A stretch of 64,000 nt of DNA, taken from the NCBI RefSeq assembly GCF_003018115.1, contig NZ_CP027457.1; one strand, written 5' to 3'. The notes beneath the pieces were generated by a model. The model worked only from the letters and a program-made list of their open reading frames with translations. It did not search any database and was not told the DNA's origin. Source of the stretch: Escherichia coli. GTDB lineage: Bacteria > Pseudomonadota > Gammaproteobacteria > Enterobacterales > Enterobacteriaceae. Positions 1 through 19,467 of the stretch are shown in pieces. Position 1 is the stretch's first letter. The number at the start of each line of letters is the position of its first letter. The position numbers and the translations under genes are program-made.

Positions 1-331
1 ATTGTGCAGGTCAGCTCGTTTTTAAAGAGTCCGGCCATCATCTTACTGGTACAGACACCATATACTTTGTGACGGTCAGGCTACATATGCACAACTCAAC
101 TTATTCATCTATTTTTTGCTTTAGCATGTCAGTGTTGCTTTCTCGTCGGCGGGTGAGCGGTGACCTGACCTGTCGATAAAGGAACGTAACACGTTTTATG
201 CAACACCCGCATGCGGCAGAAAATTATTGCCGAACGTTTACCCCTGTCAACAAGCTTTACTTTCTGAGGCGCGCCAGCCCGCGAGGAAAACAATCTGAAC
301 ATCAAACAATTAATGACACAAGAAATACGAT

Positions 332-358
332 TAAAGATTTTTTTGTGCATGCCGATAG
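332..358 (+). promoter_or_regulatory. sigma-28 (FliA) type promoter upstream of flxA
   Basis: TAAAGATT (332-339), 11-nt spacer, GCCGATAG (351-358), matching class 3 flagellar promoter consensus TAAAGTTT-N11-GCCGATAA; sits 24 nt upstream of the flxA ATG with AGGAG RBS. Confidence 0.6.
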
Positions 359-381
359 TGCTTTTTTAAAAGGAGAAATCT

Positions 382-714
382 ATGTCTGTCACAATTCAGG
401 GAAATACCTCAACCGTTATTTCAAACAACTCCGCCCCGGAAGGAACATCAGAAATAGCCAAAATCACAAGACAAATTCAGGTGCTGACTGAAAAGCTTGG
501 GAAAATCTCATCGGAAGAGGGGATGACGACACAGCAGAAAAAAGAAATGGCTGCATTGGTACAGAAGCAAATTGAAAGCCTCTGGGCTCAACTGGAGCAG
601 TTGTTAAGGCAGCAGGCAGAGAAAAAGAATGAAGACGCGACAGTTCAGCCTGATAAAAAAGAAGAGAAAAAAGACGATACAAATACCGCTGGCACCATTG
701 ATATTTACGTCTAA
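382..714 (+). CDS. flxA: FlxA, FliA-regulated prophage protein
   Basis: 110-aa ORF MSVTIQGNTSTVISNN... recognised as Qin prophage FlxA; RBS AAGGAG upstream. Confidence 0.85.
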   Translation: MSVTIQGNTSTVISNNSAPEGTSEIAKITRQIQVLTEKLGKISSEEGMTTQQKKEMAALVQKQIESLWAQLEQLLRQQAEKKNEDATVQPDKKEEKKDDTNTAGTIDIYV

Positions 715-728
715 GTGACAGCCGTATT

Positions 729-751
729 GTGGCCCTCATCGGGCCACTTTT
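729..751 (+). terminator. putative hairpin terminator after flxA
   Basis: GTGGCCC-TCATC-GGGCCAC stem-loop followed by TTTTC. Confidence 0.4.
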
Positions 752-879
752 CGCCATCAGCCTTTTCTTTAAAGACATATTATCTTTGTATCATTTCTGA
801 TAGTTAACATTACAAGATATAAGTAATGGACGCACTCCCAATTAGTCTATTTAAATCGCCACGAGTTTAACTGACAACC

Positions 880-2600
880 CATGATCAATTATGAATTGCA
901 ACTATTTCTGTAGTCACTTTTGTGGGGACAGTCCACAAAACTGCCAACTTCCGCTTCTTGCTCTTAGCGGACATTAGCATAGGCTATTTACCATAACGCC
1001 TCATTACGCGCACCGCCCAGACTGACTCAGCGCGTTTCTGGCATATCCCCGGTAAAACAAGTAACAAACCACCCGAAAATGAACACCAGAAACGCGACTT
1101 AAGAATCTACCCTATGAATGGATATGCACTCAACCGAATCGATCTTGGTTTCAATCTTTTTTATCGGGATCAGGCTTCTTTTTAGGTAACTTCGGGGGCT
1201 TAACTTGCTGATGACTTTGCGTTCGGCGCGTAAGCCAGGGATGGTCAGCTTTAGGTTTAACATAGTATTTTGAGCGTAAATCAATACGGGCATTATCCAC
1301 TCGTTCATGGACACTCTTTTCATCATCCAGTGGTATAGGCTCCGGGCCATCAACATACTTTTCCCAGCCCAGCGCTTTCCCGTCATACAGAACGTTAATT
1401 TCACCGTCAAAGTTCTCGCATACAGTAACAACCGAATGCCTAAGTCGATATCCCCGGCCCTCACTGCGTACCTGAAACGCACTGCTTTTGTACTGGAAAG
1501 TGAGATTTTTAGACAGAACGCGCTTCGCCTGTAGGCTGAAGATATAACCCAGTTCCTCTTCAGAATGGTGCACATCAAGATGAGCATTATCAGTAGTACG
1601 AGGCGACGTAGCGAACCGGTTGTTATAGGCTTCAATAAAGGTCGGCAACCATGCATTTGCTGTTTCAATATCACTGATATTCTGAAGCCGCATTTCTTTG
1701 ACCAGCCTGTCCTGTAGTGTCTGATTGGCGCGCTCTACCCGCCCTTTTGCCTGCGGGCTGTTGGCATGGATTGGCTCGATGCCCAGTGTCTTTATCGCAC
1801 GAGTGAACTGGGTCAGCTCACCTTCCCGCTCTGGGTTATTTACCCTGAATATACTGTGTCTATCAGAGTAGAGAGCGAGCGGTACGCCATGATCATTAAG
1901 GTAACCCCGGAGGGTTTCCATGTAAGCCCGGGTTGTTTCAGCAGGCACAAAACGCAACGCCATCAACGCACTGGTGGCATCATCAATGAAAACGATCAGT
2001 GTACATCTGGGGCCTCGATTTTCAAACCAGTCATGAGGTGAGCCATCAATCTGGATCAGTTCACCGTAAGATGGTCGTCGCATGCGGCGTTGATATATAC
2101 GGGCAATTTTACGACGGCGTTCACGCCATAACCCCTCTTCTATCATCCACTTTCTGAGAGTTTCAACGGATAAAGATAAACCGTGTATCTCGCGCAATTT
2201 TTCGCACGCAAACGTAGGTCCAAAATCAGCGTAACGGCCTTTGAGGAGTGAAATTACTGTTGCTCTGAATTCAGTAGAAAAGGAATTATTAGGACGCTTT
2301 CCACGTCGGTGGGAAACCAGACCAGAAGGCCCTTCATTTCTATACCGTTGCACCAGACGTTTAACCTGCCGAATAGAAATGCCAATGCGTGCCGCAGCTT
2401 GTTCCTGAATAATCTGAAGTCGGTGGAGTTCCTTATGACTCATCGTAACAGTCTCTTTGATCATGAAAAATCCCCCAGAGAATTGTCTGGGGACATTTTA
2501 GAATGGTTCAAAGGGGACATTACAGCTTGGTGTTAACAATAGCCTGCTTCTCCGTGCCTTTCGGCACGTAAGAGGCTAACCTACATGTGTCTAGCATGAA
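880..2600 (-). mobile_element. IS481-family-like insertion sequence, boundaries not resolved
   Basis: single 437-aa transposase ORF with N-terminal HTH and rve-type DDE core; interrupts prophage synteny between flxA and the replication module; ends are approximate. Confidence 0.45.
1151..2464 (-). CDS. DDE transposase, IS481-family-like
   Basis: 437 aa; HTH-like N-terminus (ARIGISIRQVKRLVQRY), integrase-core motifs (IDGSPHDWF..., LYSDRHSIF, E in RANQTLQDRL), basic C-terminal tail. Confidence 0.75.
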   Translation of the reverse strand: MIKETVTMSHKELHRLQIIQEQAAARIGISIRQVKRLVQRYRNEGPSGLVSHRRGKRPNNSFSTEFRATVISLLKGRYADFGPTFACEKLREIHGLSLSVETLRKWMIEEGLWRERRRKIARIYQRRMRRPSYGELIQIDGSPHDWFENRGPRCTLIVFIDDATSALMALRFVPAETTRAYMETLRGYLNDHGVPLALYSDRHSIFRVNNPEREGELTQFTRAIKTLGIEPIHANSPQAKGRVERANQTLQDRLVKEMRLQNISDIETANAWLPTFIEAYNNRFATSPRTTDNAHLDVHHSEEELGYIFSLQAKRVLSKNLTFQYKSSAFQVRSEGRGYRLRHSVVTVCENFDGEINVLYDGKALGWEKYVDGPEPIPLDDEKSVHERVDNARIDLRSKYYVKPKADHPWLTRRTQSHQQVKPPKLPKKKPDPDKKD

Positions 2601-2798
2601 ATTGGCCTCAGATTAATGTTAAGCGTCTTGCAGGACGCGTAATGTTAACTGGGGCTTTTCTCTATCTGCCGTTGGTGTCCATGCCCGAGGCAGATAGCCT
2701 CAAGCACCCGCAGTCATTCTACTTAACTAAGATTTCCCCGCAAACCGTTTTTGTCCAGCACAGTAAATATCCAACTAAACCAATGGAGTTCGCTGTAT

Positions 2799-2978
2799 TT
2801 ACCGCCAGTATTCAATGCACATGACCGCCATGAACACCCCTAAAAAAAGGGCATTTATATATCCAAATATTAATATCAAAACATCAACTTTTTCCATATA
2901 CCTTGCTGTGAAGATGATGGGCATACATGATGCGAACAACCAGAACGCAACAAACAAAAACTGCAATGCGTTTTTCAT
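2799..2978 (-). CDS. small hydrophobic protein (59 aa), unknown function
   Basis: ORF MKNALQFLFVAFWLFASCMPIIFTARYMEKVDVLILIFGYINALFLGVFMAVMCIEYWR with two predicted hydrophobic helices; consensus AGGAGG RBS 5 nt upstream of the ATG on the minus strand. Confidence 0.4.
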   Translation of the reverse strand: MKNALQFLFVAFWLFASCMPIIFTARYMEKVDVLILIFGYINALFLGVFMAVMCIEYWR

Positions 2979-3245
2979 TATTCCTCCTACAATCAATGTG
3001 CAATTACATTTAAACACACCTCAATTTGGCCGGACATATAAATATCTAAACCAGAAAAAATCACTTACATAGCGTTACAAACTCTTTAGTCTAAAGGTTC
3101 ATCGTAAAACATTCCCCATACTTATCAGTCCGTTCCGCGCCAGGTAGCTCATTGCCTTATCTGGCAACCTGTAATCAGGTTTCCGCTTTTTCAGTTGGCT
3201 GGTCGTTTAACCGACATAGTTAATCCATTAATCTAGTTGCCGGAT

Positions 3246-3660
3246 GTTGGTGGATTTTCGCGTTTTAGTTGTTCATAAAAGTGCACAGCTTTAACCAGTT
3301 CTTCTGATGTAACTGGGACTGGTGAGGCAGTGAATAAGGCCTGAATTTGATAGTTCGGCCTGTCGTTACAATCCTCTTTTTTCGGTACATATTTCCAGTC
3401 ACCAGACCACTACTTCCCCTGAAAGTCCGTAACGCCTTTTTTCACGTAGCGATATCGCCATGCCACTGGTTTTGCTTGCCCCGCCGTTTCATGCCCTTCC
3501 TGATAATTAATCTCGCTCATTCATCGCCCCACTCATCACAATATGCTTCGACCGGAGTTTTTCCCGCTTCATAGTCATCACGCTAGGATTCGACATCAGC
3601 AGCACTTCCACCGCGTAACTCACCATAGTCCATTAATAGTTCATCCCGCTCTTCAAAACT
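3246..3660 (-). pseudogene. degraded prophage gene remnants (short ORFs broken by stops and frame changes)
   Basis: minus-strand translation gives runs such as MSEINYQEGHETAGQAKPVAWRYRYVKKGVTDFQGK and WSGDWKYVPKKEDCNDRPNYQIQALF... in shifting frames; continues across the IS66 target site. Confidence 0.25.
3653..3660. repeat. target site duplication TCAAAACT (left copy) of the IS66-family element
   Basis: identical 8-mer immediately outside both inverted repeats. Confidence 0.8.
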
Positions 3661-3741
3661 GTAAGCGTCGTCTCAGCACCGTCTGGCAGATCCTGAAATT
3701 CCTGAGAGAATAGTGGACACCAAATATGGTGGACGCAATCC

Positions 3742-4146
3742 ATGAAATCATTAACCGCAGTGCGTAAAAAAAGCCCTAATTATCCCGTTGAGTTCAAAAT
3801 CAAAATGGTTGAACTCTCGCATCGACCAGAGATCTCCGTAGCGCAACTCGCTCGTGAGCATGGGATCAACGATAATTTGCTGTTCAAGTGGCGCCAGTAC
3901 TGGCGCGAAGGAAAACTACGTCCTCCTTCAACAACAGAAAACAACGTGCCTGAGCTGCTCCCGATAACACTTGATGCCGAAGATGTTGTCCCTACAACCT
4001 CCCCCCGGTCACAACCTGTAGCTGCTGCGACACCTGAATCACTCAATATCAGCTGTGAAGTGACGTTCCGGCACGGATCACTCCGTCTGAATGGTGCCAT
4101 CAGCGAAAATATCCTGAACCTGCTGATACGGGAGCTCAAACGTTGA
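3742..4146 (+). CDS. IS66-family TnpA (orf1)
   Basis: 134 aa, HTH-like N-terminus; first ORF of the IS66 triad. Confidence 0.8.
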   Translation: MKSLTAVRKKSPNYPVEFKIKMVELSHRPEISVAQLAREHGINDNLLFKWRQYWREGKLRPPSTTENNVPELLPITLDAEDVVPTTSPRSQPVAAATPESLNISCEVTFRHGSLRLNGAISENILNLLIRELKR

Positions 4147-4490
4147 TCCCATTACCATCAGGGACAAAGATCTGGCTGGTCGCTGGCATCACCGATATGA
4201 GAAACGGCTTCAACGGCCTGGCGGCAAAGGTGCAGACGACGCTGAAAGACGATCCGATGTCAGGTCACGTTTTTATCTTCCGTGGGCGTAATGGCAGTCA
4301 GGTAAAGCTCCTCTGGTCTACCGGCGATGGACTGTGTCTGCTGACCAAACGGCTGGAGCGCGGCCGCTTCGCCTGGCCGTCAGCCCGGGATGGCAAAGTG
4401 TTCCTCACACCGGCACAGCTGGCGATGCTGCTGGAAGGTATCGACTGGCGGCAGCCTAAAAGACTGCTTACGTCCCTGACTATGTTGTAA
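4143..4490 (+). CDS. IS66-family TnpB (orf2)
   Basis: 115 aa MIPLPSGTKIWLVAGITDMRNGFNGLAAKVQ...; overlaps the tnpA stop. Confidence 0.8.
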   Translation: MIPLPSGTKIWLVAGITDMRNGFNGLAAKVQTTLKDDPMSGHVFIFRGRNGSQVKLLWSTGDGLCLLTKRLERGRFAWPSARDGKVFLTPAQLAMLLEGIDWRQPKRLLTSLTML

Positions 4491-4538
4491 GCCTCTTTAT
4501 CCTGGTCGACGCTGAATGAGCCTGGTAATATACCCGGT

Positions 4539-6074
4539 ATGAGCAGCTCACTTCCTGACGATATCAATGCACTGAAACGTCTCCTTGCCGAACAGGAGGC
4601 GCTGAACCGTGCCCTGCAGGAAAAGCTGAACGAGCGTGAACGCGAAATAGACCATCTGCAGGCACAGCTGGATAAGCTGCGCCGGATGAACTTCGGCAGC
4701 CGCTCGGAAAAAGTCTCCCGTCGTATCGCACAGATGGAAGCTGACCTGAAGGCACTTCAGAAAGAAAGTGATACCCTTACCGGTCGGGTTGACGACCCGG
4801 CCGTGCAGCGCCCGCTGCGTCAAACCCGCACCCGCAAACCGTTCCCCGAATCACTCCCCCGCGATGAAAAACGGCTGCTGCCGGCAGCGTCATGCTGCCC
4901 GGAATGTGGAGGCTCGCTGAGCTATCTGGGTGAGGATGCCGCCGAACAGCTGGAGCTGATGCGCAGCGCCTTCCGGGTTATCCGGACTGTACGTGAAAAG
5001 CATGCCTGTACTCAGTGCGATGCCATCGTGCAGGCCCCCGCGCCTTCACGGCCCATCGAGCGGGGTATCGCAGGACCGGGGCTGCTGGCCCGCGTGCTGA
5101 TCTCAAAGTATGCAGAGCACACCCCGCTGTACCGCCAGTCTGAAATGTACGGCCGCCAGGGCGTGGAGCTGAGTCGTTCACTGCTGTCGGGCTGGGTGGA
5201 TGCATGCTGCCGGCTACTGTCACCGCTGGAAGAAGCGCTTCAGGACTATGTGCTGACTGACGGTAAGCTCCATGCTGATGACACGCCTGTCCCGGTGCTG
5301 TTGCCAGGCAATAAGAAAACGAAGACCGGGCGGTTATGGACCTACGTTCGTGACGACCGTAACGCCGGGTCAACGCTGGCGCCGGCGGTGTGGTTCGCTT
5401 ACAGCCCGGACAGAAAAGGCATCCATCCGCAGACCCATCTTGCGGGGTTCAGTGGTGTACTGCAGGCGGATGCATACGCCGGGTTCAACGAGCTGTACCG
5501 GGATGGCCGGATAACGGAAGCCGCCTGTTGGGCTCACGCCCGCCGTAAAATCCACGATGTGCACGTTCGCACCCCGTCAGCCCTGACGGAGGAAGCGCTG
5601 AAACGGATCGGCGAACTGTACGCCATCGAGGCAGAGATAAGGGGAATGACGGCGGAGCAGCGCCTTGCCGAACGTCAGTTGAAAACGAAACCGCTGCTGA
5701 AATCCCTGGAAAGCTGGCTGCGTGAAAAGATGAAAACCCTGTCGCGACACTCAGAACTGGCGAAAGCGTTCGCATACGCCCTGAACCAGTGGCCGGCGCT
5801 GACGTACTATGCAGATGATGGCTGGGCTGAGGCGGACAATAACATCGCTGAAAATGCGTTGCGGATGGTCAGTCTGGGCCGCAAAAACTACCTGTTCTTC
5901 GGTTCGGATCATGGAGGAGAGCGGGGAGCGCTGCTGTACAGCCTGATCGGGACGTGCAAACTGAACGGAGTGGAGCCAGAAAGCTACCTCCGCTATGTCC
6001 TTGACGTCATAGCCGACTGGCCGATAAACCGGGTCGGCGAACTGCTCCCCCTGGCGCGTAGCACTGCCGACTGA
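4539..6074 (+). CDS. IS66-family transposase TnpC (orf3)
   Basis: 511 aa with N-terminal coiled-coil, CxxC pairs (CCPECG, CTQCD) and DDE-type core typical of IS66 transposases. Confidence 0.85.
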
Positions 6075-6115
6075 ATAACACATCCCCGTCAATACGGTTC
6101 TTGCTGCACGCTTAC

Positions 6116-6123
6116 TCAAAACT
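6116..6123. repeat. target site duplication TCAAAACT (right copy) of the IS66-family element
   Basis: identical 8-mer immediately outside both inverted repeats. Confidence 0.8.
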
Positions 6124-6593
6124 GATGTTATATTTAGCTGAACAAAAATCAGCCACTTTGTTCTTCCTCATCGTCTTTTATTTCGTGGTATGAGTAATTG
6201 CAGTAGTTAAAGAAAATTTCTTATGCTCCGTCATGAATTTCCTCAGGTGTTGCGTCATCGTCCACTTCGAATACATCCTCAAAATCTCCACCAGCTATTC
6301 CCGTTTCAATAATAATTTTGAACTTTCGCATTTCACTACCGCCCTTTCGGGCGGCCTCCTGATGTTCTGAGGGTGCAGAAATCCATCCGGTTAAGGATTA
6401 AATTTTATTTACAGAACTGAATTTAATTATTCAGATATACGTATCTGTAGCCTTACGAATCTACTCACTGGATGCCTCTTTCATAAAAATAATCCAGTGG
6501 GTTTTATCGTTTTTTCCCTGTTCGTTGACAGATAACAGGTTTTCTGTCTGTCAGTGCCAGAATCTGGCTTACCGGTATTTGCGTTTCATTCCA

Positions 6594-6950
6594 TTAAAAA
6601 ATCAGAACGCCGTGCGGCCTCAACACCCGAAAGGCTTCTTTAAATCTCTGTCGCGAATCATCACGCCAGGCATCTTTATTCAGCCGTCCATATTTCTTTC
6701 CCATCCAGGCGTTATCACCAACACTCTCAAGATGCGGAGGGTCTAATACAACCATCGAAAAAGATGCGTCTGCAAATGATAATGCACGAAAATCTGCGAT
6801 AATGTCAGGGCTGATAATCAAGCGTCTCCCATTGCGTAATGTGTATCCTTCTTTTCTGATATCGCTGAATATCGCCCGTTCGTCAGACTTATCGAACCAG
6901 AACATGCGGCTGCCACAGCACATATCAAGAATGGTTGCCGGTGCACTCAC
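6594..6950 (-). CDS. small SAM-dependent methyltransferase-like protein (118 aa), possibly truncated or orphan
   Basis: G-loop-like motif ILDMCCGSRMF and a DPPH motif (DPPY-like amino-methyltransferase motif IV); start overlaps the stop of the upstream ORF by 4 nt. Confidence 0.4.
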   Translation of the reverse strand: MSAPATILDMCCGSRMFWFDKSDERAIFSDIRKEGYTLRNGRRLIISPDIIADFRALSFADASFSMVVLDPPHLESVGDNAWMGKKYGRLNKDAWRDDSRQRFKEAFRVLRPHGVLIF

Positions 6951-7369
6951 TGCGCCACGTCCTGAAAATTACCCTGATAGAAAGCCAGTATGCGCTGCAT
7001 AACTTCGCTCTTCCGGCACTCGCGACAGATTATGTTTAGGCGACTGTCGTAGCGACGTATTTCTCCGTCAGGTGATGACCAGATAAGGTCCGGATCAACC
7101 ACAGCAGGTTTCTTCACCTTTGCCCTCGAGAGTTTTTTGCGGGCGTTTTGCCAGTCCTTACGCGCCTGTTCAGAGGGGAATAACCCGTAGCCGGAGTTGT
7201 ATACATCGCCACTGGCTACCAGCTCTCTGGCAAGAACGCTCATCAGATATCTAGTCGCACCTGTTTTAGCTTCCAGTTGCCGTAACGTCTCACGGCCGCT
7301 CTGGCGCACGAGTTCCACCACCTGCCATTTAATTTTTTCCCGCTCTTCTTGTGTAAAAACTTTTGCCAC
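6947..7369 (-). CDS. hypothetical prophage protein (140 aa)
   Basis: ORF immediately downstream of the replication gene on the same strand; no recognisable family from sequence alone. Confidence 0.4.
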   Translation of the reverse strand: MAKVFTQEEREKIKWQVVELVRQSGRETLRQLEAKTGATRYLMSVLARELVASGDVYNSGYGLFPSEQARKDWQNARKKLSRAKVKKPAVVDPDLIWSSPDGEIRRYDSRLNIICRECRKSEVMQRILAFYQGNFQDVAQ

Positions 7370-7409
7370 AAGTCCCCCTTAAAATTACCTCATGACCTGA
7401 AATCAACAC

Positions 7410-8375
7410 TTATCCTCTGAAACCAGGCGGAATTTCTGTATCCGGTTCAGAAATATGATTAACACAACGCTGTACAGGTGAACGTCCCAGGCGGATGACC
7501 AGTTCGTCCCATTTTTCGCGGAGCTTTGACGGGCTCATGATGTTTTTTACCCAGAATGGATCTCGCTGAACCCGACCAAACATTTCGCAAATTTGTCTGT
7601 GGCTTCTGCCATCCAGCATCCGCATTGTGCGCACGTCATTGGCCCAGGCAGTCCAGTTAGGCTCTTTTGGTCGCATGATCTCGCCATCATCACTGGCTGC
7701 CTGTTCGTAGAGACCCACGATCCGCCCCCAGATCCACTGCGCACACGCCAAATCCTCCCTGCTACCCCACTGGCGTTTTTTCGCACTAAACACAACCGCG
7801 TCGGAGTTCCGGGTTAAAAAATCCTGTTCAGTCGTCTGCGGGTCCGGTTGCGAAGCTTCCGGACGAAAAGTGTTTTTATTCTCTGTAGTAATCTCTGTTG
7901 TATTCTCTGTAAGATCATCAGGCCATTTTGACCCGATGACATTGGGTCGTTTTGAACCAATGGAGCGTTTCATTTTGACCTCTTCCATCGTGTCATTTTG
8001 ACCTGATGGAGCGGCGCATTTTGAACCGATGGATTCGCTCAATTTGCCACCATCTAAAAGCTCGCTCCCATAGTTGATCGTGTAGAAATTGGTCATATCG
8101 CGCTTTGATTTATTGAGCTTTTCACAACGCAAAAGCCCCAGCGTTTTCAGACTTGCAAACGCGCGCTTTAACGTTGACTCTGACCAGAATGGGAACTGTT
8201 CCAGCCATTGTTCCGTTGTGTTATAAATCCAGCGAACACCATCACATTCCATGCCGGAGTTGGTATCTCTCAACCAGTAGTGCAGTTGTTGCAAAACAAT
8301 GGCTTCGTTTAAGCCAATTTTCATTGCCAGCTGCGTGTTTATAACCAGTGGACGTTCAGCAAAAAGAAGGCTCAT
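7410..8375 (-). CDS. phage replication initiator, lambda O-like (replisome organiser)
   Basis: N-terminal region resembles the phage O N-terminal DNA-binding domain; iterons embedded in the coding sequence (protein repeats IGSK); start uncertain: TTG at 8429, ATG at 8375 or ATG at 8324. Confidence 0.6.
   Translation of the reverse strand: MSLLFAERPLVINTQLAMKIGLNEAIVLQQLHYWLRDTNSGMECDGVRWIYNTTEQWLEQFPFWSESTLKRAFASLKTLGLLRCEKLNKSKRDMTNFYTINYGSELLDGGKLSESIGSKCAAPSGQNDTMEEVKMKRSIGSKRPNVIGSKWPDDLTENTTEITTENKNTFRPEASQPDPQTTEQDFLTRNSDAVVFSAKKRQWGSREDLACAQWIWGRIVGLYEQAASDDGEIMRPKEPNWTAWANDVRTMRMLDGRSHRQICEMFGRVQRDPFWVKNIMSPSKLREKWDELVIRLGRSPVQRCVNHISEPDTEIPPGFRG
7924..8054. repeat. iteron array (putative prophage origin of replication) inside the O-like gene
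   Basis: five to six copies of CATTTTGA(C/A)C(N)GATGG-like units at about 23-24 bp spacing (near 7924, 7949, 7971, 7994, 8017, 8041), flanked at 7861-7923 by ATTCTCTGT repeats and an AT-rich stretch. Confidence 0.6.
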
Positions 8376-8877
8376 AATTCCATCCAGCTTTTTGTTGGTA
8401 TTGCTGTCGATACGCAAGTTTGAAAGCAATTGCTTTTTCTATAAGTTCGTCAGTTTCACGATCCACTACGGCAGGATCAGCAAAAAGCAGTCCGGACTCC
8501 ACCACATCGCCATATTCTTTGTTTAACCCGGCGATCATGCACGTGATGCTTTTTCCGTCAGTAATTTCACGATACAACCTGAAATCATTAATCCGGATAG
8601 CCTCCATAATTGCAGGCACTAGCGCCGTGAACTTTTCACGCTTATCCCTGGTGTCGATAGCCTTCCAGCGTTCAAATATCTTCACTCGATTAACGCCAAG
8701 CGCTCGCTGATCAATCGCGCCACCTTCATATGTGACACGCTGAACATCGATGTTCGGGCGCTCTTTCAAAGCCCAGAATGCTTCAGTGATTAATATCGTC
8801 GCCTGCTCCTGTGTCATTCCTGGTCGACATATCCAGGCATCCAGAGCCTCACGAGCCTGTTCAGGAGTGATTTTCAT
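8356..8877 (-). CDS. hypothetical prophage early protein (173 aa)
   Basis: ORF between the cro-like dicC and the O-like gene on the same strand; ATG start. Confidence 0.45.
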   Translation of the reverse strand: MKITPEQAREALDAWICRPGMTQEQATILITEAFWALKERPNIDVQRVTYEGGAIDQRALGVNRVKIFERWKAIDTRDKREKFTALVPAIMEAIRINDFRLYREITDGKSITCMIAGLNKEYGDVVESGLLFADPAVVDRETDELIEKAIAFKLAYRQQYQQKAGWNYEPSFC

Positions 8878-9091
8878 TGTTCAACCGCCCCGCCCGCTTC
8901 GTCTTACGATATTCATCATAAACTTTGGGATCATACTGAAGCTCCCCGCCAGATGCCTCCTGTAGACGCATCGCGCGACCTTCGGGAACTAAATCCCCTT
9001 TCCAGCTATAAAGCGAAGCCAAACGAATACCTGCTGCTTGTGCAAGTTTTGTTTTTGAACCGAAATACAAAAGAGCGTCAGTTTTAAGCAT
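8861..9091 (-). CDS. dicC: DicC, Cro-like repressor of division inhibition
   Basis: 76 aa MLKTDALLYFGSKTKLAQAAGIRLASLYSWKGDL...; divergent from dicA. Confidence 0.85.
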   Translation of the reverse strand: MLKTDALLYFGSKTKLAQAAGIRLASLYSWKGDLVPEGRAMRLQEASGGELQYDPKVYDEYRKTKRAGRLNNENHS

Positions 9092-9174
9092 TTAAAACAC
9101 CTTTATTGTTAGTCATAACTAACAAGATAGATGTTAACAAAAACATAGTCAATACGATTTAGCATTAGCTAACT
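9092..9174. promoter_or_regulatory. dicA-dicC divergent promoter and operator region
   Basis: repeated TTAG(T/C)-N-CTAA-type half-site motifs (TTAGTCATAACTAACAA, TTAGCATTAGCTAACT); similar motifs recur at 9600-9670. Confidence 0.5.
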
Positions 9175-9582
9175 ATGGAAACAAAAAATTTAACTATCGG
9201 CGAACGCATCAGGTATCGTCGGAAAAACCTCAAACACACCCAAAGGTCTCTTGCTAAAGCCCTGAAAATCTCCCATGTGTCTGTATCACAATGGGAACGG
9301 GGTGATAGTGAACCTACAGGGAAGAACCTTTTTGCCCTCAGCAAAGTATTGCAATGCTCACCAACATGGATTCTATTTGGCGATGAAGACAAGCAACCAA
9401 CACCACCTGTTGAGAAGCCAGTTGCCTTATCCCCCAAAGAACTAGAGCTCCTTGAGCTGTTTAATGCACTGCCAGAATCAGAACAGGATACCCAGCTCGC
9501 CGAAATGCGAGCTCGAGTAAAAAACTTCAATAAACTCTTTGAAGAATTACTAAAAGCCCGTCAGCGGACAAATAAAAGATAA
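9175..9582 (+). CDS. dicA: DicA, cI-like HTH repressor
   Basis: 135 aa METKNLTIGERIRYRRKNLKHTQRSLAKALKISHVSVSQWERGDSEPTG... Confidence 0.9.
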   Translation: METKNLTIGERIRYRRKNLKHTQRSLAKALKISHVSVSQWERGDSEPTGKNLFALSKVLQCSPTWILFGDEDKQPTPPVEKPVALSPKELELLELFNALPESEQDTQLAEMRARVKNFNKLFEELLKARQRTNKR

Positions 9583-9748
9583 CATCATCAATGAGTTATC
9601 TTTTACCACATCAATTATGTTAGCTATAGCATACAAAATCACTTGACCGATATGTTAGTCATGGCTAATCTTGTTTGCATCAACACACCGCACGGTGTTC
9701 TCAGCAAACAGTTCCGCTACCCCAGCGTTAAGGGGAAATGAGGTCAGC

Positions 9749-9904
9749 ATGGATACTATCGATCTTGGCAACAACGAATCTCTGGTGTACGGCGTGTTTC
9801 CAAACCAGGACGGCACGTTCACCGCAATGACGTATACCAAAAGCAAAACGTTTAAAACCGAAAATGGTGCCCGTCGCTGGCTGGAAAGAAACTCAGGTGA
9901 GTGA
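9749..9904 (+). CDS. ydfA: YdfA small prophage protein
   Basis: 51 aa MDTIDLGNNESLVYGVFPNQDGTFTAMTYTKSKTFKTENGARRWLERNSGE. Confidence 0.8.
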   Translation: MDTIDLGNNESLVYGVFPNQDGTFTAMTYTKSKTFKTENGARRWLERNSGE

Positions 9905-9905
9905 T

Positions 9906-10034
9906 ATGGATTTCGACACAATCATGGAAAAGGCTTACGAAGAATACTTCGAAGGCCTTGCCGAAGGCGAAGAAGCTCTCAGCTTCAGTGAGTTTAAACA
10001 GGCGCTTTCCAGTTCGGCAAAATCTAACGGCTGA
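9906..10034 (+). CDS. ydfB: YdfB small prophage protein
   Basis: 42 aa MDFDTIMEKAYEEYFEGLAEGEEALSFSEFKQALSSSAKSNG; below the ORF-track length cutoff. Confidence 0.75.
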   Translation: MDFDTIMEKAYEEYFEGLAEGEEALSFSEFKQALSSSAKSNG

Positions 10035-10063
10035 TAAGCGAAACAGCACCGCGAGGAATCAGT

Positions 10064-10282
10064 ATGCAGAAACGAGAACCCGTCATCATCGCGCCAGACT
10101 ATACCGATGATGAACTTTATGAGTGGATGCGCCAGAAAATTAATGCAGCGCAGGATCTGAAATGGGCTAATGAAGCCAGGGCTAAGCAGGCTGAAAATCT
10201 GTCCGCTCTGGAGCAGGATATCACCAATCTGGAAAAAGCAGCGGCATTAAGCATTGCCAGAATGATTACATACCCGCGTTAG
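10064..10282 (+). CDS. ydfC: YdfC prophage protein
   Basis: 72 aa MQKREPVIIAPDYTDDELYEWMRQKINAAQDLKWANEARAKQAENL... Confidence 0.8.
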   Translation: MQKREPVIIAPDYTDDELYEWMRQKINAAQDLKWANEARAKQAENLSALEQDITNLEKAAALSIARMITYPR

Positions 10283-10622
10283 TAGCTAATCAACAAAGCT
10301 AAGGTTAGTAATTAAGGAGTTCTCCACGGGTGAGGTGGAGTGCGTGCGCCGGACACGGGTGCGCATCCGGAACTGACAGTTTACTGAAAGGATATTTCCC
10401 TGAAAAGTCAGACCATAACGCGAAAGCGCACGGCGAGGTAGCTGGTTCATAGATAGCCTGTCGTTAAATTTTCGTCGACCGTGCGCTTCCGGTTGTGGCA
10501 ACCCGCGAAATGGCGCGGCGGTAAGTATGGCGGGGTTATTCCTTCCCCGTTGAGGACACCGGGTTGTCAGGTTGACCATACGCTTAAGTGACAACCCCGC
10601 TGCAACGCCCTCTGTTATCAAT

Positions 10623-10675
10623 TTTCTGGTGACGTTTGGCGGTATCAGTTTTACTCCGTGACTGCTCTGCCGCCC
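10623..10675 (+). ncRNA. dicF: DicF small RNA (ftsZ-targeting, processed from the dicA operon transcript)
   Basis: sequence TTTCTGGTGACGTTTGGCGGTATCAGTTTTACTCCGTGACTGCTCTGCCGCCC followed by a T-run, between ydfC and dicB. Confidence 0.8.
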
Positions 10676-10849
10676 TTTTTAAAGTGAATTTTGTGATGTG
10701 GTGAATGCGGCTGAGCGCACGCGGAACAGTTAAAACCAAAAACAGTGTTATGGGTGGATTCTCTGTATCCGGCGTTAATTGTTAACTAGTTAACGTCACC
10801 TGGAGGCACCAGGCACTGCATCACAAAATTCATTGTTGAGGACGCGATA

Positions 10850-11038
10850 ATGAAAACGTTATTACCAAACGTTAATACGTCTGAAGGTTGTTTTGAAATT
10901 GGTGTCACTATCAGTAACCCAGTATTTACTGAAGATGCCATTAACAAGAGAAAACAAGAACGGGAGCTATTAAATAAAATATGCATTGTTTCAATGCTGG
11001 CTCGTTTACGTCTGATGCCAAAAGGATGTGCACAATGA
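10850..11038 (+). CDS. dicB: DicB cell-division inhibitor
   Basis: 62 aa MKTLLPNVNTSEGCFEIGVTISNPVFTEDAINKRKQERELLNKICIVSMLARLRLMPKGCAQ. Confidence 0.9.
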   Translation: MKTLLPNVNTSEGCFEIGVTISNPVFTEDAINKRKQERELLNKICIVSMLARLRLMPKGCAQ

Positions 11039-11226
11039 ATTCAGCATTTGTGCTTGTTCTGACAGTTTTTCTTGTTTCCGGAGAGCCAGTTGATATTGCA
11101 GTCAGTGTTCACAGGACAATGCAGGAGTGTATGACTGCAGCAACCGAACAGAAAATTCCCGGTAACTGTTACCCGGTCGATAAAGTTATTCACCAGGATA
11201 ATATCGAAATCCCGGCAGGTCTTTAA
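11035..11226 (+). CDS. ydfD: YdfD small membrane (lysis-type) protein
   Basis: 63 aa MNSAFVLVLTVFLVSGEPVDIAVSVHRTMQECMTAATEQKIP...; ATGA overlap with the dicB stop. Confidence 0.8.
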   Translation: MNSAFVLVLTVFLVSGEPVDIAVSVHRTMQECMTAATEQKIPGNCYPVDKVIHQDNIEIPAGL

Positions 11227-11318
11227 AACAGTTCCGTAATAAATATCCGGTTTCATTCTTATATGCCAGCAATGGCAGGGATTTGTTCATCCTTAAATCT
11301 GTCATGAGGTTAAAACAA

Positions 11319-13790
11319 ATGAGTAAAGTCTTTATTTGCGCCGCTATTCCTGACGAACTGGCAACAAGGGAAGAAGGCGCTGTGGCTGTAGCCACAGCCA
11401 TTGAAGCTGGCGACGAACGCCGTGCTCGAGCAAAATTTCACTGGCAATTCCTGGAACATTATCCGGCTGCTCAGGACTGCGCTTATAAATTTATTGTCTG
11501 CGAGGATAAACCTGGCATACCCCGCCCTGCCCTCGATTCATGGGATGCTGAATATATGCAGGAAAACCGCTGGGATGAGGAGTCTGCTTCTTTTGTCCCG
11601 GTTGAGACTGAATCCGATCCGATGAACGTCACTTTTGACAAGCTGGCCCCTGAAGTACAGAACGCTGTCATGGTTAAGTTCGACACATGTGAAAACATCA
11701 CCGTTGATATGGTTATTAGCGCACAGGAATTGTTGCAGGAAGACATGGCAACATTCGACGGACATATCGTTGAAGCGTTGATGAAAATGCCAGAAGTTAA
11801 CGCCATGTATCCGGAGCTTAAGTTGCACGCCATTGGGTGGGTTAAGCATAAATGTATTCCTGGTGCTAAATGGCCCGAAATTCAGGCAGAGATGCGCATC
11901 TGGAAAAAACGTCGCGAAGGTGAACGCAAGGAAACCGGAAAATACACGTCTGTTGTTGATCTCGCCCGCGCCAGAGCCAATCAACAGTACACTGAAAATT
12001 CAACAGGAAAAATCAGCCCGGTCATTGCTGCCATTCATCGCGAATACAAGCAGACATGGAAAACACTGGATGACGAACTGGCCTACGCTCTCTGGCCTAG
12101 TGATGTGGATGCCGGAAACATTGACGGCAGCATCCATCGCTGGGCAAAAAAAGAAGTTATCGACAACGACCGCGAAGACTGGAAGCGTATCTCGGCATCA
12201 ATGCGCAAACAGCCTGATGCCCTTCGCTACGACCGCCAAACTATTTTTGGCCTTGTCCGTGAGCGTCCGATCGACATTCACAAAGATCCCGTAGCACTGA
12301 ACAAATATATCTGCGAATACCTGACGACAAAGGGCGTGTTTGAGAATGAAGAAACAGACCTGGGCACTGTTGATGTTCTCCAGTCATCAGAAACACAAAC
12401 TGATGCAGTGGAAACTGAGGTATCTGATATCCCAAAAAATGAAACCGCGCCGGAAGCTGAACCATCTGTAGAGCGTGAGGGGCCGTTCTATTTCCTCTTC
12501 GCAGATAAGGACGGAGAAAAATACGGTCGCGCAAACAAACTCTCTGGTCTGGATAAGGCACTGGCTGCTGGCGCCACTGAAATCACAAAAGAAGAATATT
12601 TTGCCCGAAAAAATGGCACATACACGGGCTTACCGCAAAATGTAGATACCGCTGAAGATTCAGAACAACCAGAGCCGATAAAAGTTACCGCTGACGAAGT
12701 AAACAAAATTATGCAGGCAGCCAATATCAGCCAGCCTGACGCCGATAAGTTGCTTGCTGCATCACGTGGTGAATTTGTTGAAGGGATTAGTGACCCGAAT
12801 GATCCGAAATGGGTTAAGGGGCTCCAGACCCGCGATTCTGTGAACCAGAACCAGCATGAATCGGAACGGAACTACCAAAAAGCGGAACAAAACAGTCCAA
12901 ATGCGTTACAAAACGAGCCAGAAACGAAACAGCCTGAACCAGTAGCGCAACAGGAAGTGGAAAAAGTCTGCACCGCCTGCGGTCAGACCGGCGGCGGCAA
13001 CTGCCCTGATTGTGGCGCGGTGATGGGCGACGCAACATACCAAGAAACATTCGATGAAGAGTATCAGGTTGAAGTTCAGGAAGATGATCCGGAGGAAATG
13101 GAAGGCGCTGAACATCCACACAAGGAGAACACTGGCGGCAATCAGCATCACAATAGCGATAATGAAACTGGCGAGACGGCAGATCACCCAATTAAGGTGA
13201 ACGGTCATCACGAAATCACATCCACCAGCAGGACGTGTGACCATCTAATGATCGACCTTGAAACCATGGGAAAAAATCCTGATGCCCCGATCATCTCAAT
13301 AGGTGCAATATTTTTCGATCCGCAAACCGGAGATATGGGACCGGAATTTAGTAAGACTATCGATCTGGAAACTGCTGGCGGAGTCATTGATCGGGACACC
13401 ATTAAATGGTGGCTTAAGCAATCACGCGAAGCGCAATCTGCCATTATGACCGATGAAATCCCGTTAGATGATGCACTGTTACAATTGCGAGAATTTATCG
13501 ACGAAAACTCCGGTGAATTTTTTGTTCAGGTTTGGGGAAATGGAGCCAACTTCGACAACACGATTTTGCGCCGTTCATACGAACGGCAGGGGATCCCCTG
13601 CCCGTGGCGTTACTACAACGATCGCGATGTACGCACAATCGTTGAGCTGGGGAAAGCCATAGACTTCGATGCCAGAACGGCTATTCCATTCGAAGGTGAG
13701 CGCCATAATGCACTTGATGACGCCCGTTACCAGGCAAAATACGTTTCAGTTATCTGGCAAAAACTGATCCCGAGTCAGGCTGATTCTTAA
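11319..13790 (+). CDS. ydfE: YdfE-family protein with C-terminal DnaQ-like (DEDDh) 3'-5' exonuclease domain
   Basis: N-terminus MSKVFICAAIPDELATREEG... matches YdfE; acidic low-complexity linker; CxxC-x8-CxxC ribbon (CTACGQTGGGNCPDCG); C-terminal exonuclease motifs MIDLETMG, WGNGANFD, HNALDDARY. Confidence 0.8.
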   Translation: MSKVFICAAIPDELATREEGAVAVATAIEAGDERRARAKFHWQFLEHYPAAQDCAYKFIVCEDKPGIPRPALDSWDAEYMQENRWDEESASFVPVETESDPMNVTFDKLAPEVQNAVMVKFDTCENITVDMVISAQELLQEDMATFDGHIVEALMKMPEVNAMYPELKLHAIGWVKHKCIPGAKWPEIQAEMRIWKKRREGERKETGKYTSVVDLARARANQQYTENSTGKISPVIAAIHREYKQTWKTLDDELAYALWPSDVDAGNIDGSIHRWAKKEVIDNDREDWKRISASMRKQPDALRYDRQTIFGLVRERPIDIHKDPVALNKYICEYLTTKGVFENEETDLGTVDVLQSSETQTDAVETEVSDIPKNETAPEAEPSVEREGPFYFLFADKDGEKYGRANKLSGLDKALAAGATEITKEEYFARKNGTYTGLPQNVDTAEDSEQPEPIKVTADEVNKIMQAANISQPDADKLLAASRGEFVEGISDPNDPKWVKGLQTRDSVNQNQHESERNYQKAEQNSPNALQNEPETKQPEPVAQQEVEKVCTACGQTGGGNCPDCGAVMGDATYQETFDEEYQVEVQEDDPEEMEGAEHPHKENTGGNQHHNSDNETGETADHPIKVNGHHEITSTSRTCDHLMIDLETMGKNPDAPIISIGAIFFDPQTGDMGPEFSKTIDLETAGGVIDRDTIKWWLKQSREAQSAIMTDEIPLDDALLQLREFIDENSGEFFVQVWGNGANFDNTILRRSYERQGIPCPWRYYNDRDVRTIVELGKAIDFDARTAIPFEGERHNALDDARYQAKYVSVIWQKLIPSQADS

Positions 13791-13862
13791 TGTTCAACTG
13801 TCGCCGGTTGTGACTGGTATTCTGCAACCGGCGCTCGTCTGATGTAAGAGATAAAGAAATCG

Positions 13863-14114
13863 ATGAGCGAAGTAATCATGATTGTCTCTCCCGGCAAATG
13901 GGTATCCGAAGAGCAGTTAATTGCGCTGAAAGGAATAAAAAAAGGTACGTTAAAAAAGGCCCGGGAAAAATCGTTTATGGAAGGAAGGGAATATAAGCAT
14001 GTCGCTCATGACGGTATGCCATGGGATAACAGTCCATGCTTTTACAACCTGGAAGAAATTGATCGCTGGATTGAGCGCCAGGCATCAGCGAGACCAAGAC
14101 GTCATCTTACTTGA
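13863..14114 (+). CDS. excisionase-like protein
   Basis: 83-aa basic ORF directly upstream of the integrase, the typical lambdoid xis position. Confidence 0.6.
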   Translation: MSEVIMIVSPGKWVSEEQLIALKGIKKGTLKKAREKSFMEGREYKHVAHDGMPWDNSPCFYNLEEIDRWIERQASARPRRHLT

Positions 14115-14133
14115 CTAAAAGCCACACTAACTA

Positions 14134-15429
14134 ATGAGAGAAGTTGAAATGAAATATCCGACAGGCGTGGAAAACCATGGAGGGAAATTACGTATCTGGT
14201 TTGTTTATAAAGACGTAAGAGTCAGGGAAAATCTGGGGGTTCCTGACACAGCAAAAAACAGGCGCGTTGCAGGTGAACTACGCTCCTCTGTTTGTTACGC
14301 AATAAAAACTGGTGTTTTCGACTATGCAAAACAGTTTCCCTCCTCACGCAATCTGGAAAAATTTGGTGAGGCCCGACAAGATTTAACCATAAAAGAACTG
14401 GCTGAAAAATTTCTGGCACTGAAAGAAACTGAAGTCGCCAAAACATCACTCAACACATACCGTGCCGTCATCAAAAATATCCTGAGCATAATCGGTGAAA
14501 AAAATCTTGCCTCATCGATTAATAAAGAAAAATTACTGGAGGTTCGTAAAGAGTTACTGACTGGATACCAGATCCCCAAAAGTAACTATATTGTTACACA
14601 ACCAGGGAGATCGGCTGTAACTGTAAATAATTACATGACAAATCTTAACGCCGTGTTCCAGTTTGGTGTTGATAACGGTTACCTGGCAGATAATCCGTTT
14701 AAGGGGATCTCGCCATTAAAGGAATCAAGAACCATTCCGGATCCTCTTTCGCGGGAAGAATTTATCCGTCTTATCGATGCGTGCAGAAATCAGCAAGCAA
14801 AAAATTTATGGTGTGTTTCTGTTTATACTGGAGTTCGCCCTGGTGAGCTGTGTGCACTTGGATGGGAGGACATAGATCTGAAAAATGGAACAATGATGAT
14901 CAGGAGAAATTTAGCAAAAGACCGTTTCACGGTACCAAAAACACAGGCGGGAACCAATCGGGTCATTCATCTTATTAAGCCAGCAATCGACGCTCTCCGG
15001 AGTCAGATGACATTAACGAGACTGAGCAAAGAGCATATCATTGATGTTCACCTCAGAGAGTATGGCAGAACAGAAAAACAAAAATGCACCTTTGTTTTTC
15101 AACCTGAAGTGTCAGCGAGAGTAAAAAATTATGGTGACCATTTTACCGTTGACTCAATAAGGCAGATGTGGGACGCAGCGATAAAACGTGCCGGACTCCG
15201 CCATCGAAAATCATATCAGTCGAGACATACTTATGCCTGCTGGTCGCTGACAGCTGGTGCTAACCCGGCATTTATAGCAAACCAGATGGGCCATGCAGAT
15301 GCGCAAATGGTATTTCAGGTATACGGAAAATGGATGTCTGAAAACAATAATGCACAGGTAGCTTTGTTAAATACACAGTTAAGCGAGTTTGCCCCAACCA
15401 TGCCCCATAACGAAGCAATGAAAAATTAA
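14134..15429 (+). CDS. intQ: tyrosine recombinase, phage integrase (IntQ-like, full length)
   Basis: 431 aa with C-terminal catalytic motifs (HxxR in SRHTYACW, Y in VFQVYGKW); last gene before core rspB. Confidence 0.85.
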   Translation: MREVEMKYPTGVENHGGKLRIWFVYKDVRVRENLGVPDTAKNRRVAGELRSSVCYAIKTGVFDYAKQFPSSRNLEKFGEARQDLTIKELAEKFLALKETEVAKTSLNTYRAVIKNILSIIGEKNLASSINKEKLLEVRKELLTGYQIPKSNYIVTQPGRSAVTVNNYMTNLNAVFQFGVDNGYLADNPFKGISPLKESRTIPDPLSREEFIRLIDACRNQQAKNLWCVSVYTGVRPGELCALGWEDIDLKNGTMMIRRNLAKDRFTVPKTQAGTNRVIHLIKPAIDALRSQMTLTRLSKEHIIDVHLREYGRTEKQKCTFVFQPEVSARVKNYGDHFTVDSIRQMWDAAIKRAGLRHRKSYQSRHTYACWSLTAGANPAFIANQMGHADAQMVFQVYGKWMSENNNAQVALLNTQLSEFAPTMPHNEAMKN

Positions 15430-15616
15430 TTTAATATTTATCAAATAGTTAACACGCATGACTCTTGAAATCCATAAATTCAAGCGCAGTGCCCAGCCAT
15501 CCCGATACCGCTGCTTTCACCAAATCCTTAGTGCTTCTTTCGTGTTTTTCTATTGTCATAATGGTTATCTCTAAAAAAGAGGTAAGATGCGTACTACTTA
15601 CTCGCCGTTATTGGTA
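15430..15616. other. prophage-chromosome junction (attR candidate) between int and rspB
   Basis: position only: 187-bp non-coding gap between the integrase stop and the first core gene. Confidence 0.4.
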
Positions 15617-16636: not shown

Positions 16637-16647
16637 TATCTTACTCC

Positions 16648-17862: not shown

Positions 17863-18067
17863 GTTCGATTCCTTGCATCGCTTGTCGTGATGCATGAAAT
17901 CTACGCAACTGAGCTACTACCATACAAGTATGAAGATCAAAAAAAGCCGGAGTGATCACAAAAAAAGGCGTATATTTTCGCCATGAATGGTTGACAAAAG
18001 ATGAAATAGAGTACCTTTTATCAGCTGACGCTTCCTCGTATCTTATTGATAAAATGGATTTATGTTC

Positions 18068-18870: not shown

Positions 18871-18904
18871 CCTGTTATTGATTTAAGGAATGTAAGGACA
18901 CGTT

Positions 18905-19465: not shown

Positions 19466-19467
19466 CA

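Follow-up and report, generated by a model that had tools for sequence, protein, structure and literature searches.

The 64,000-nucleotide stretch of Escherichia coli DNA analysed here (contig NZ_CP027457.1; hereafter the window) begins with what is very probably the right-hand, integrase-proximal arm of a temperate lambdoid phage of the Qin/mEp460/PhiR42_1 type (positions 1-15477), which entered when its integrase (Int) recombined attP with a core of 11 bp close to the 5' end of ydfJ. Many E. coli chromosomes match the arm at 100% identity, it is collinear with Qin of K-12, and leftward the prophage runs on past the start of the window. It is an ordinary, well-understood Qin-type element at ydfJ, already known and not new, and the result is mostly a clarification of the status of Qin.

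An earlier note on this DNA had recognised the gene content and order of K-12 Qin, and both blastn collinearity and the annotation of an arm-identical genome bear this out, the order in the latter being flxA, dicC, dicA, ydfA, ydfB, ydfC, dicB, ydfD, the gene for an 823-aa exonuclease, xis, int and rspB. Alignment with K-12 MG1655 confirms synteny with Qin (NC_000913.3, 1632277-1652745) in three collinear blocks, at window positions 1-1335 (100%), 8598-12085 (99.9%) and 14270-18000 (99.5%), and the integration site, the 11-bp core and the gene order are all shared. The marks of the Qin type are present: a GAAATCCATAA core junction at the 5' end of ydfJ by rspB, the integration site described for Qin (PMC6379469), and dicC/dicA followed by ydfABC-dicF-dicB-ydfD. 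That this is really a different prophage, one that looks like Qin by coincidence or because lambdoid modules are shared, is barely credible, as the nucleotide identity to K-12 Qin in blastn (99.5-100% in all shared blocks), together with the same junction and the same core, refutes it, and nothing was found in its favour.

Several genes of the arm have an exact counterpart in K-12. The gene flxA (382-714, plus strand; placed from the annotation of an identical genome) has 100% identity with K-12, the proteins DicC, DicA, YdfA, YdfB, YdfC, DicB and YdfD are the same, and dicF is the same in sequence. The immunity region (8861-9582) holds the Cro-like dicC (8861-9091, minus strand) and the CI-like dicA (9175-9582, plus strand), with roles assigned after Ragunathan et al. 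2023. It is followed on the plus strand by the genes of the dicBF operon (9749-11226), namely ydfA, ydfB, ydfC, dicF (10624-10675, located with Rfam), dicB (10850-11038) and ydfD (11035-11226). An early-right module on the minus strand (6594-8877) comprises a methyltransferase fragment (6594-6950), DUF977/LygF (6947-7369), an O-like replication protein (7410-8375) and a protein in the YdaT/cII position (8356-8877), the first 93 codons of which are ydfX in K-12. A sok-like RNA match lies at 2538-2709 on the minus strand (Rfam RF01794, 104 bits), and six-frame inspection found no intact hok reading frame near it.

The recombination genes at the right end of the arm are whole in sequence, as the earlier note had proposed in describing a full-length integrase with catalytic motifs, an excisionase-like gene and an uninterrupted ydfE. 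The tyrosine integrase of 431 aa (14134-15429, plus strand; PGAP start 14149) has both its Pfam domains, an N-terminal arm-binding domain of the kind seen in heterobivalent phage integrases (PF12167 Arm-DNA-bind_2, residues 9-72, E=4e-22) and the Phage_integrase catalytic domain (PF00589, E=4e-18), and is 100% identical to Int of PhiR42_1 and 99.1% identical to Int of mEp460_ev081. Its six active-site positions, R235, K269, Y361, R364, H387 and Y397, show no disabling substitutions, and all six are invariant between the integrases of the window, mEp460_ev081 and BP-4795. Five of the six fit the canonical set Arg-Lys-His-Arg-His/Trp-Tyr; the sixth, Tyr361 at the first His position, is a subfamily trait. 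We considered Tyr361 as a disabling lesion and rejected the idea, since the integrases of mEp460_ev081 and BP-4795 both have it.

Adjoining int is a gene for an 83-aa excisionase (13863-14114, plus strand) of the DUF1233 family (Pfam PF06806, E=2e-31), identical to that of PhiR42_1. Before it lies the 823-aa exonuclease gene (11319-13790, plus strand), which corresponds to K-12 ydfE and has 100% nucleotide identity with PhiR42_1. Its product matches Pfam PF16473 (E=2e-67) and profile positions 271-600 of NCBIfam PRK09709, with a RecE-like region in the middle and, at the C-terminus, an Rv2179c-like 3'-5' exonuclease domain; all 823 codons are open here, compared with the 255 kept in K-12.

The 11-bp att core, GAAATCCATAA, lies at 15467-15477. 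To its left is the core-proximal part of the P arm (15430-15466), an arm that reaches back into the 3' end of int and is identical to the PhiR42_1 attP arm at 600 of 600 nucleotides; to its right, where chromosomal DNA begins, is the displaced 5' end of ydfJ (15478-15559, minus strand; ynfP in K-12), with its start codon at 15557-15559. The core is common to both K-12 Qin junctions, the attP sites of PhiR42_1 and mEp460_ev081, and the empty site. Reconstruction of attP x attB gives the window junction as P arm, core and B', and the far junction in K-12 and in strain GZ04-0086 as B, core and P'. The predicted empty site, an in-silico attB with intact ydfJ, has an exact match in 2011 of 5426 genomes. 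No second att site (B-core-P', sought as core plus P' arm with up to 3 mismatches) was found anywhere in the 64 kb of the window.

The haplotype of the window changes at the core. The haplotype switch is confined to 51 bp (15458-15508), an interval that holds the att core exactly. Left of it the window agrees with PhiR42_1 and the ST10-type prophage but not with the prophage resident in F8111-1SC3, the last differences being at 15451 and 15457; right of it the match to F8111-1SC3 is 100% over 11.5 kb, and K-12 and Ecol_AZ155 differ, first at 15509. ST10-type genomes match the arm, and O169:H41 genomes the flank, at 100% identity, and the combination occurs in none of 5426 complete genomes. Judged from these alignments, the switch indicates a recent, Int-mediated, site-specific insertion, of which it would be the footprint. 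The arm could instead have arrived on a large imported fragment taken in by homologous recombination, in which case the position of the switch would be fortuitous and uninformative on Int activity. E. coli chromosomes are mosaic, positions 39001-64000 of the window have yet another affinity (the best only 99.6%), and related ydfJ prophages such as that of F8111-1SC3 would give crossovers about 5 kb of sequence at 99% homology. However, homologous import needs a crossover inside 51 bp (31 bp for an empty recipient site) amid many kilobases of homology, and we regard it as improbable. A sharp switch at the att core is a textbook integration footprint and invokes no new principle.

Two IS elements and decayed ORFs had been reported in the segment from flxA to dicC. 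One of the two stands: ISEc22, of the IS66 family (3661-6115, plus strand), with tnpA at 3742-4146, tnpB at 4143-4490 and the transposase gene at 4539-6074. It shows the tnpA-tnpB-tnpC layout of IS66 elements, terminal inverted repeats whose ends start GTAAGCG, and an 8-bp target duplication, TCAAAACT, at 3653-3660 and 6116-6123. It is the sole structural difference of the arm from PhiR42_1, sits where that record annotates just short hypothetical ORFs, and is not at this place in K-12. PGAP flags a frameshift in the ISEc22 transposase of identical genomes, yet its 511-aa ORF spans the full NCBIfam profile. The other supposed element is an intact gene for an ISNCY-type transposase of 437 aa (1151-2464, minus strand; NCBIfam transpos_ISNCY_2, positions 7-365 of 368, E=7e-137), with HTH and rve_3 domains; a search for terminal inverted repeats around it found none that was convincing. 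Because this gene is also present in PhiR42_1, where it has a stop at codon 130, and partly in K-12, where its last 49 codons are ydfW, we assign it to the phage backbone. The decayed ORFs are there, but they belong to the phage type, being in the PhiR42_1 record too.

Int, Xis, the P arm and the core all have intact sequences, and excision competence is plausible from sequence, with the partner att site lying beyond the window. Excision would remove the entire prophage of about 50 kb, not the integrase-proximal part alone as had been suggested. By analogy with lambda and with published work on Qin, the CI-like DicA would repress dicBp, and either the Rem antirepressor or a spontaneous switch to the Cro-like DicC would derepress the leftward operon ydfABC-dicF-dicB-ydfD-exo-xis-int; with the two hybrid att sites recombined by Int and Xis, ydfJ would be restored and a circle of about 50 kb released. 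We put the chances that such excision occurs in the source strain at about even.

The partner site was sampled in Ecol_AZ155 and eight further genomes, all with an arm identical to that of the window. In six of these nine it is in cis and direct, with the body of ydfJ 35-36 kb leftward in direct orientation; one more is consistent with that arrangement, one is inverted, and the remaining one gave no call. The inverted case is Ecol_AZ155, in which an inversion has placed the partner att site 315 kb away, so that excision would be precluded there, and in which the far prophage end carries a truncated ompW instead of ydfJ. Ecol_AZ155 had raised the suspicion that the arm never had a cis att partner; this was rejected, as the inversion is specific to that strain among the sampled genomes. 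The only relative read across the whole prophage, GZ04-0086, has a complete head/tail module between its att sites; in the source strain, the lysis and morphogenesis genes lie beyond the window. Both it and Ecol_AZ155 carry a gnsB frameshift and an IS3 in the endolysin gene, and on account of the latter the production of infectious particles is less likely than excision.

The element of the source strain may nonetheless be a grounded cryptic prophage, unable to excise although its recombination genes look intact, whether through rearrangement or loss of the partner att site, under-expression of int and xis, or a one-nucleotide change in P' that spoils the geometry of the intasome. The change in question lies about 66 bp from the core, where K-12 and GZ04-0086 have T7 and both phages T6. 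Consistent with such grounding are also the Ecol_AZ155 inversion, a partner site not visible in the window, the IS3, ISEc22 and pseudogenes of the sampled arm-identical genomes, and the description of Qin as permanently trapped in K-12. Against this, both att sites are in cis and direct in six of the sampled arm-identical genomes, Int, Xis and the P arm are the same as in the phage record, the haplotype switch at the core indicates a recent Int-mediated insertion of this very genotype, and homopolymer length differs even between two phage attP sequences. A grounded element is a serious possibility, if somewhat short of an even one.

A broader and more tentative reading, which we consider possible but rather unlikely, is that Qin of the K-12 type is a circulating temperate phage and that the window records an O169:H41-like chromosome recently lysogenised, through Int, by an ISEc22-carrying phage of about 51 kb. 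If so, E. coli lineages would still be passing Qin to one another horizontally, together with its dicBF, relBE and csp cargo, and in the source strain the element could be excised or induced. For studies of this cargo, a near-isogenic Qin with predicted working recombination genes is available in strains such as this. They allow one to ask whether Rem derepression or loss of DicA triggers excision, and how the host is affected when the element is gone.

Among the closest known elements is Escherichia phage PhiR42_1 (PV340562.1, 48.7 kb, host ECOR13), which has 99.94-99.97% identity over the arm, ISEc22 aside; in exo, xis, int and the P arm the identity is 100%, with no differences over window positions 10789-15477. 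It shares the backbone of the window type, with the ISNCY-type gene, the sok-like region, relBE, csp genes, pinQ and ydfK, and differs in the absence of ISEc22, the stop at codon 130 of the transposase gene, and five further SNPs in the arm at 6377, 8352, 9607, 9616 and 10788. PhiR42_1 is a free phage record with attP, whereas the window holds an integrated copy; a literature search found no publication describing PhiR42_1 or showing its plaques. Phages mEp460_ev081, Tritos and HannyBb, compared in part, have integrases 99.1-99.5% identical to that of the window, the same xis-exo-ydfD-dicB layout and a nearly identical attP, but partly other early-region alleles (for example a Cro of 228 nt and a LygF of 402 nt). 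Of these, mEp460_ev081 is cited as a functional temperate phage with dicB, dicF, dicAC and rem. More distant are Rac of K-12 and the yecE/yehV-type Stx phages (IntR-type, such as BP-4795), whose integrases belong to the same subfamily at about 61% identity. They share the Arm-DNA-bind_2 N-terminus, the Tyr at the His-I position and an xis adjoining int, but their att sites and immunity are unlike those of the window and they are separate elements. Rac shows that a prophage can be defective and nevertheless excise (PMC4632033).

The reference Qin of K-12 is a derivative of the same genotype as the window arm. It lacks a 7262-bp segment (window 1336-8597), which blastn places between the ydfW and ydfX remnants and whose deletion junction shows imperfect microhomology, TAGGCTCC/TAGCCTCC; these 7.3 kb, from the transposase gene to the ydaT-like gene, were very probably lost by microhomology deletion. 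A second loss was that of 2.2 kb (the 3' part of exo, xis and the 5' end of int) adjoining an IS2 insertion; blastn shows a 2184-bp segment (12086-14269) exchanged in K-12 for a 706-bp IS2E remnant. This deletion took two thirds of the exonuclease gene, all of xis and the first 45 codons of int, and the resulting intQ, without codons 1-45 of the Arm-DNA-bind_2 region, has one further change, L307F. The proposal that genes intact here are pseudogenes in K-12 thus holds for int, xis and the exonuclease gene. That an intact arm is unusual, as the proposal implied, finds no support: intact xis-int at the ydfJ junction occurs in 2255 of 5426 complete E. coli genomes (42%), which makes K-12 the exception, and there is already a nearly identical phage record as well as a related phage that is functional. 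Qin in K-12 has been described as permanently trapped and non-excising, for which the truncated intQ accounts. Qin of K-12, the standard model of a trapped cryptic prophage, is a copy with two deletions of a common phage type that has sequenced free-phage representatives.

By integration site, core sequence, gene order and near-identity of sequence, the prophage arm (window 1-15477) belongs to the Qin-type group. Many complete E. coli chromosomes are 100% identical to window 1-16000. The order annotated in strain Ecol_AZ155 (NZ_CP019005.1) is flxA, ydfW, an ISNCY-type transposase gene and an IS66-family element (ISEc22); a methyltransferase fragment, DUF977, an O-like gene, a YdaT-family gene, dicC, dicA, ydfA, ydfB, ydfC, dicB and ydfD; then an 823-aa exonuclease, an excisionase and a site-specific integrase, followed by rspB. 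DicF is matched by Rfam at 10624-10675. This agrees with the gene order claimed in the earlier note, and direct blastn against K-12 MG1655 bore out the proposed synteny, giving three collinear blocks at 99.5-100% identity (window 1-1335 at 100%, 8598-12085 at 99.9% and 14270-18000 at 99.5%). Two events therefore separate K-12 from the window. In the first, window 1336-8597 (7262 bp) is missing from K-12, with imperfect microhomology at the deletion junction (TAGGCTCC/TAGCCTCC). This left two gene stumps: ydfW, which corresponds to the final 49 codons of the 437-aa transposase ORF, and ydfX, whose beginning consists of codons 1-93 of the YdaT-family gene. In the second, window 12086-14269 (2184 bp) is exactly replaced in K-12 by a 706-bp IS2E remnant, with loss of codons 256-823 of the exonuclease gene (ydfE), the whole of xis and int codons 1-45. 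The immunity region and dicBF operon are identical in the window and K-12.

The genes truncated or absent in K-12 are whole here, and both the Qin-type identity and the intactness read from the sequence alone were right. The 431-aa integrase (Int) is indeed full length, with Arm-DNA-bind_2 at residues 9-72 and a catalytic domain of the Phage_integrase type. Alignment with Tn1549 integrase structures, combined with motif positions, assigned the active site to R235, K269, Y361, R364, H387 and the nucleophile Y397. Position 361 is held by His in most family members. Y361 was rejected as a disabling lesion and is regarded as a subfamily trait, because it is invariant in the integrases of phages mEp460_ev081 and BP-4795 (the latter 61% identical). 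Int belongs to the tyrosine recombinases and carries an IntR-like subfamily signature. The excisionase-like gene encodes an 83-aa DUF1233 excisionase (Xis), and ydfE is, as had been noticed, uninterrupted. Its 823-aa product (11319-13790) has a middle region resembling RecE (NCBIfam PRK09709, profile positions 271-600) and a C-terminal Rv2179c-like 3'-5' exonuclease domain. No annealase gene adjoins it, which matches the 'Tritos' class in the table of PMC12315714, nucleases that lack a single-strand annealing protein.

A protein search of phage records found an integrase 100% identical to Int in Escherichia phage PhiR42_1 (PV340562.1; host ECOR13), and integrases with 99.1-99.5% identity in HannyBb, mEp460_ev081 and Tritos. 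The 48.7-kb PhiR42_1 genome has the whole Qin gene order, uninterrupted: int, xis, exo, ydfD ... dicA, dicC, O-like ... flxA, relBE, hokD, rem, Q, then cspF/B, lysis genes, cspI, terminase, heads, tails, stf/tfa, pinQ, ydfK and ynfT. DNA identity to PhiR42_1 is 99.97% over window 1-3661 and 99.94% over 6116-15482, with zero differences across 10789-15477 (dicB, ydfD, exo, xis, int and the att arm). The sole structural difference is the presence in the window of ISEc22 (3661-6115; 2455 bp), which has inverted ends starting GTAAGCG and is flanked by a target duplication of 8 bp, TCAAAACT. Three SNPs relative to PhiR42_1 were noted: 9607 and 9616 lie in the dicA-ydfA intergenic region, the expected place of dicBp and its operators, where the window is as in K-12; at 10788, between dicF and dicB, it is unlike both K-12 and PhiR42_1.

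Given this near-identity, the ISNCY-type gene and the 'decayed ORFs' belong to the phage genome. The earlier note had counted the former as an IS element and taken the latter as decay, and so over-read the segment, since the sequenced PhiR42_1 genome contains both. The ISNCY-type ORF (1151-2464, minus strand) is part of the phage backbone; it is intact in the window (437 aa, covering the full NCBIfam profile) but has a stop at codon 130 in PhiR42_1, and a search for terminal inverted repeats around it found none. PGAP annotates this ORF as 'incomplete' with a separate ydfW. It also labels the ISEc22 transposase (4539-6078) frameshifted in identical genomes; a 511-aa ORF (4539-6074) nevertheless spans the complete IS66 transposase profile as well as the C-terminal IS66 element. 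A sok-like Rfam match (2538-2709, minus strand, 104 bits), whose sequence is also in PhiR42_1, lacks an intact hok reading frame in its vicinity and is probably a decayed hok/sok locus.

A core repeat had been expected at the 15430-15616 junction, and the 11-bp core common to both K-12 Qin junctions, GAAATCCATAA, was found at 15467-15477. The predicted empty site (K-12 ydfJ-side flank, one core and rspB-side flank) is present in 2011 of 5426 complete genomes at a coverage of at least 80%, with many matches at 100% identity and annotated as intact ydfJ. Alignment with the attP regions of PhiR42_1 and mEp460_ev081 reads the window junction as P arm, core and B', and the far junction of K-12 and strain GZ04-0086 as B, core and P'; as aligned, this is the textbook pattern. 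The P arm of the window is identical to that of PhiR42_1 at 600 of 600 positions. Compared with the two phages, the P' arm of K-12 and GZ04-0086 has a T-run that is one nucleotide longer, at about 66 bp from the core (T7 in the prophages, T6 in the two attP sites; loci L007, ~6250, and L003, ~5350), and two or three further, distant SNPs. Homopolymer length also differs between the two phage attP sites, at another run. A 1-nt spacing change in the P' arm could matter for intasome assembly.

The window matches Ecol_AZ155 base for base up to 15508, and from 15509 on diverges by about 1.5% from both Ecol_AZ155 and K-12. For the flank (15478-27000), 100% identity is instead found in O169:H41 ETEC genomes, F8111-1SC3 among them; these genomes carry at ydfJ a different 26-kb remnant with a frameshifted int. 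Between this remnant and the window there are 49 differences within 10302-15457, the last two at 15451 and 15457. This confines the haplotype switch to 15458-15508, an interval of 51 bp with the core inside. Such a switch is predicted by Int-mediated integration, whereas homologous import needs a crossover in exactly that interval. We consider this good, though inferential, evidence that the prophage genotype, including ISEc22, entered the chromosomal background via the att site, recently enough for no substitution to have accumulated in the arm. The lineage of the flank differs from that of the genomes sharing the arm, and none of the 5426 complete genomes combines the identical arm and flank. 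Over 39001-64000 the best identity among them is only 99.6%, despite the 100% match to O169:H41 over 15478-27000, so the source genome is a mosaic. The F8111-1SC3 remnant (NZ_CP024269.1; L019 24000-49911), with iss, two tolA-like genes and an MFS/LysR/BCCT cargo block, illustrates the variability of occupants at ydfJ.

The far end of the prophage, outside the window, was read in other genomes carrying the identical arm. In GZ04-0086, CUVET17-972, 6409, EM03-18-08, 10R and BN01 the ydfJ body lies to the left of window position 1, at 35-36 kb and in direct orientation; MB57 is consistent with collinearity, with a shorter prophage. Ecol_AZ155 is inverted: its far end is a truncated ompW beside the trp operon, and the ydfJ body is on the opposite strand at a distance of about 315 kb, beside a reciprocal hybrid prophage starting with an ompW-specific integrase. 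SX45, also sampled, was assigned to neither arrangement. The Ecol_AZ155 arrangement is an inversion of about 315 kb (about 2.65-3.02 Mb; L004 9417-9542, L005 39698-41512, L006 40494-41777) whose partners are the Qin-type prophage and a lambdoid prophage integrated at ompW, giving two reciprocal hybrids with mismatched att ends in each. None of six other genomes carrying the identical arm showed the inversion, which could be real or an assembly artefact; in the Ecol_AZ155 arrangement Int could carry out inversion but not excision. The complete element of GZ04-0086 measures about 51.6 kb and has a full lambda-like head and tail module, but its endolysin gene is interrupted by IS3 and its gnsB is frameshifted.

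The window holds an intact int, xis, P arm and core, inserted site-specifically at ydfJ. In published work, dicBp is repressed by DicA, Rem is an antirepressor, and DicA and DicC act like CI and Cro, a subpopulation switching spontaneously; mEp460_ev081, a functional temperate phage, has the same module (Ragunathan et al. 2023). By analogy with lambda, where int and xis follow pL, the dicBF transcription unit would be continued by exo, xis and int; derepression would then supply Int and Xis, leading to excision of the whole ~50-kb prophage and restoration of ydfJ. The excision suggested in the earlier note thus seems reasonable, but we give competence in the source strain about an even chance, because the partner att site lies outside the window and the prediction is drawn from sequence. 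Production of infectious particles is less likely, since the endolysin gene is IS3-disrupted in both GZ04-0086 and Ecol_AZ155.

A query of window 13500-15620 (exo 3' end, xis, int and junction) was at least 80% covered in 2255 of the 5426 genomes, while K-12-type copies cover only 64% of it; the intact state is therefore common and K-12 the exception. This frequency fits published surveys, which place Qin in about half of strains at sizes of 11 to 97 kb (PMC6379469), and is also in line with the published statement that an inactive intQ keeps Qin from excising in K-12 (PMC3105296). Nothing in the arm lies outside known biology, and the element is one already known.
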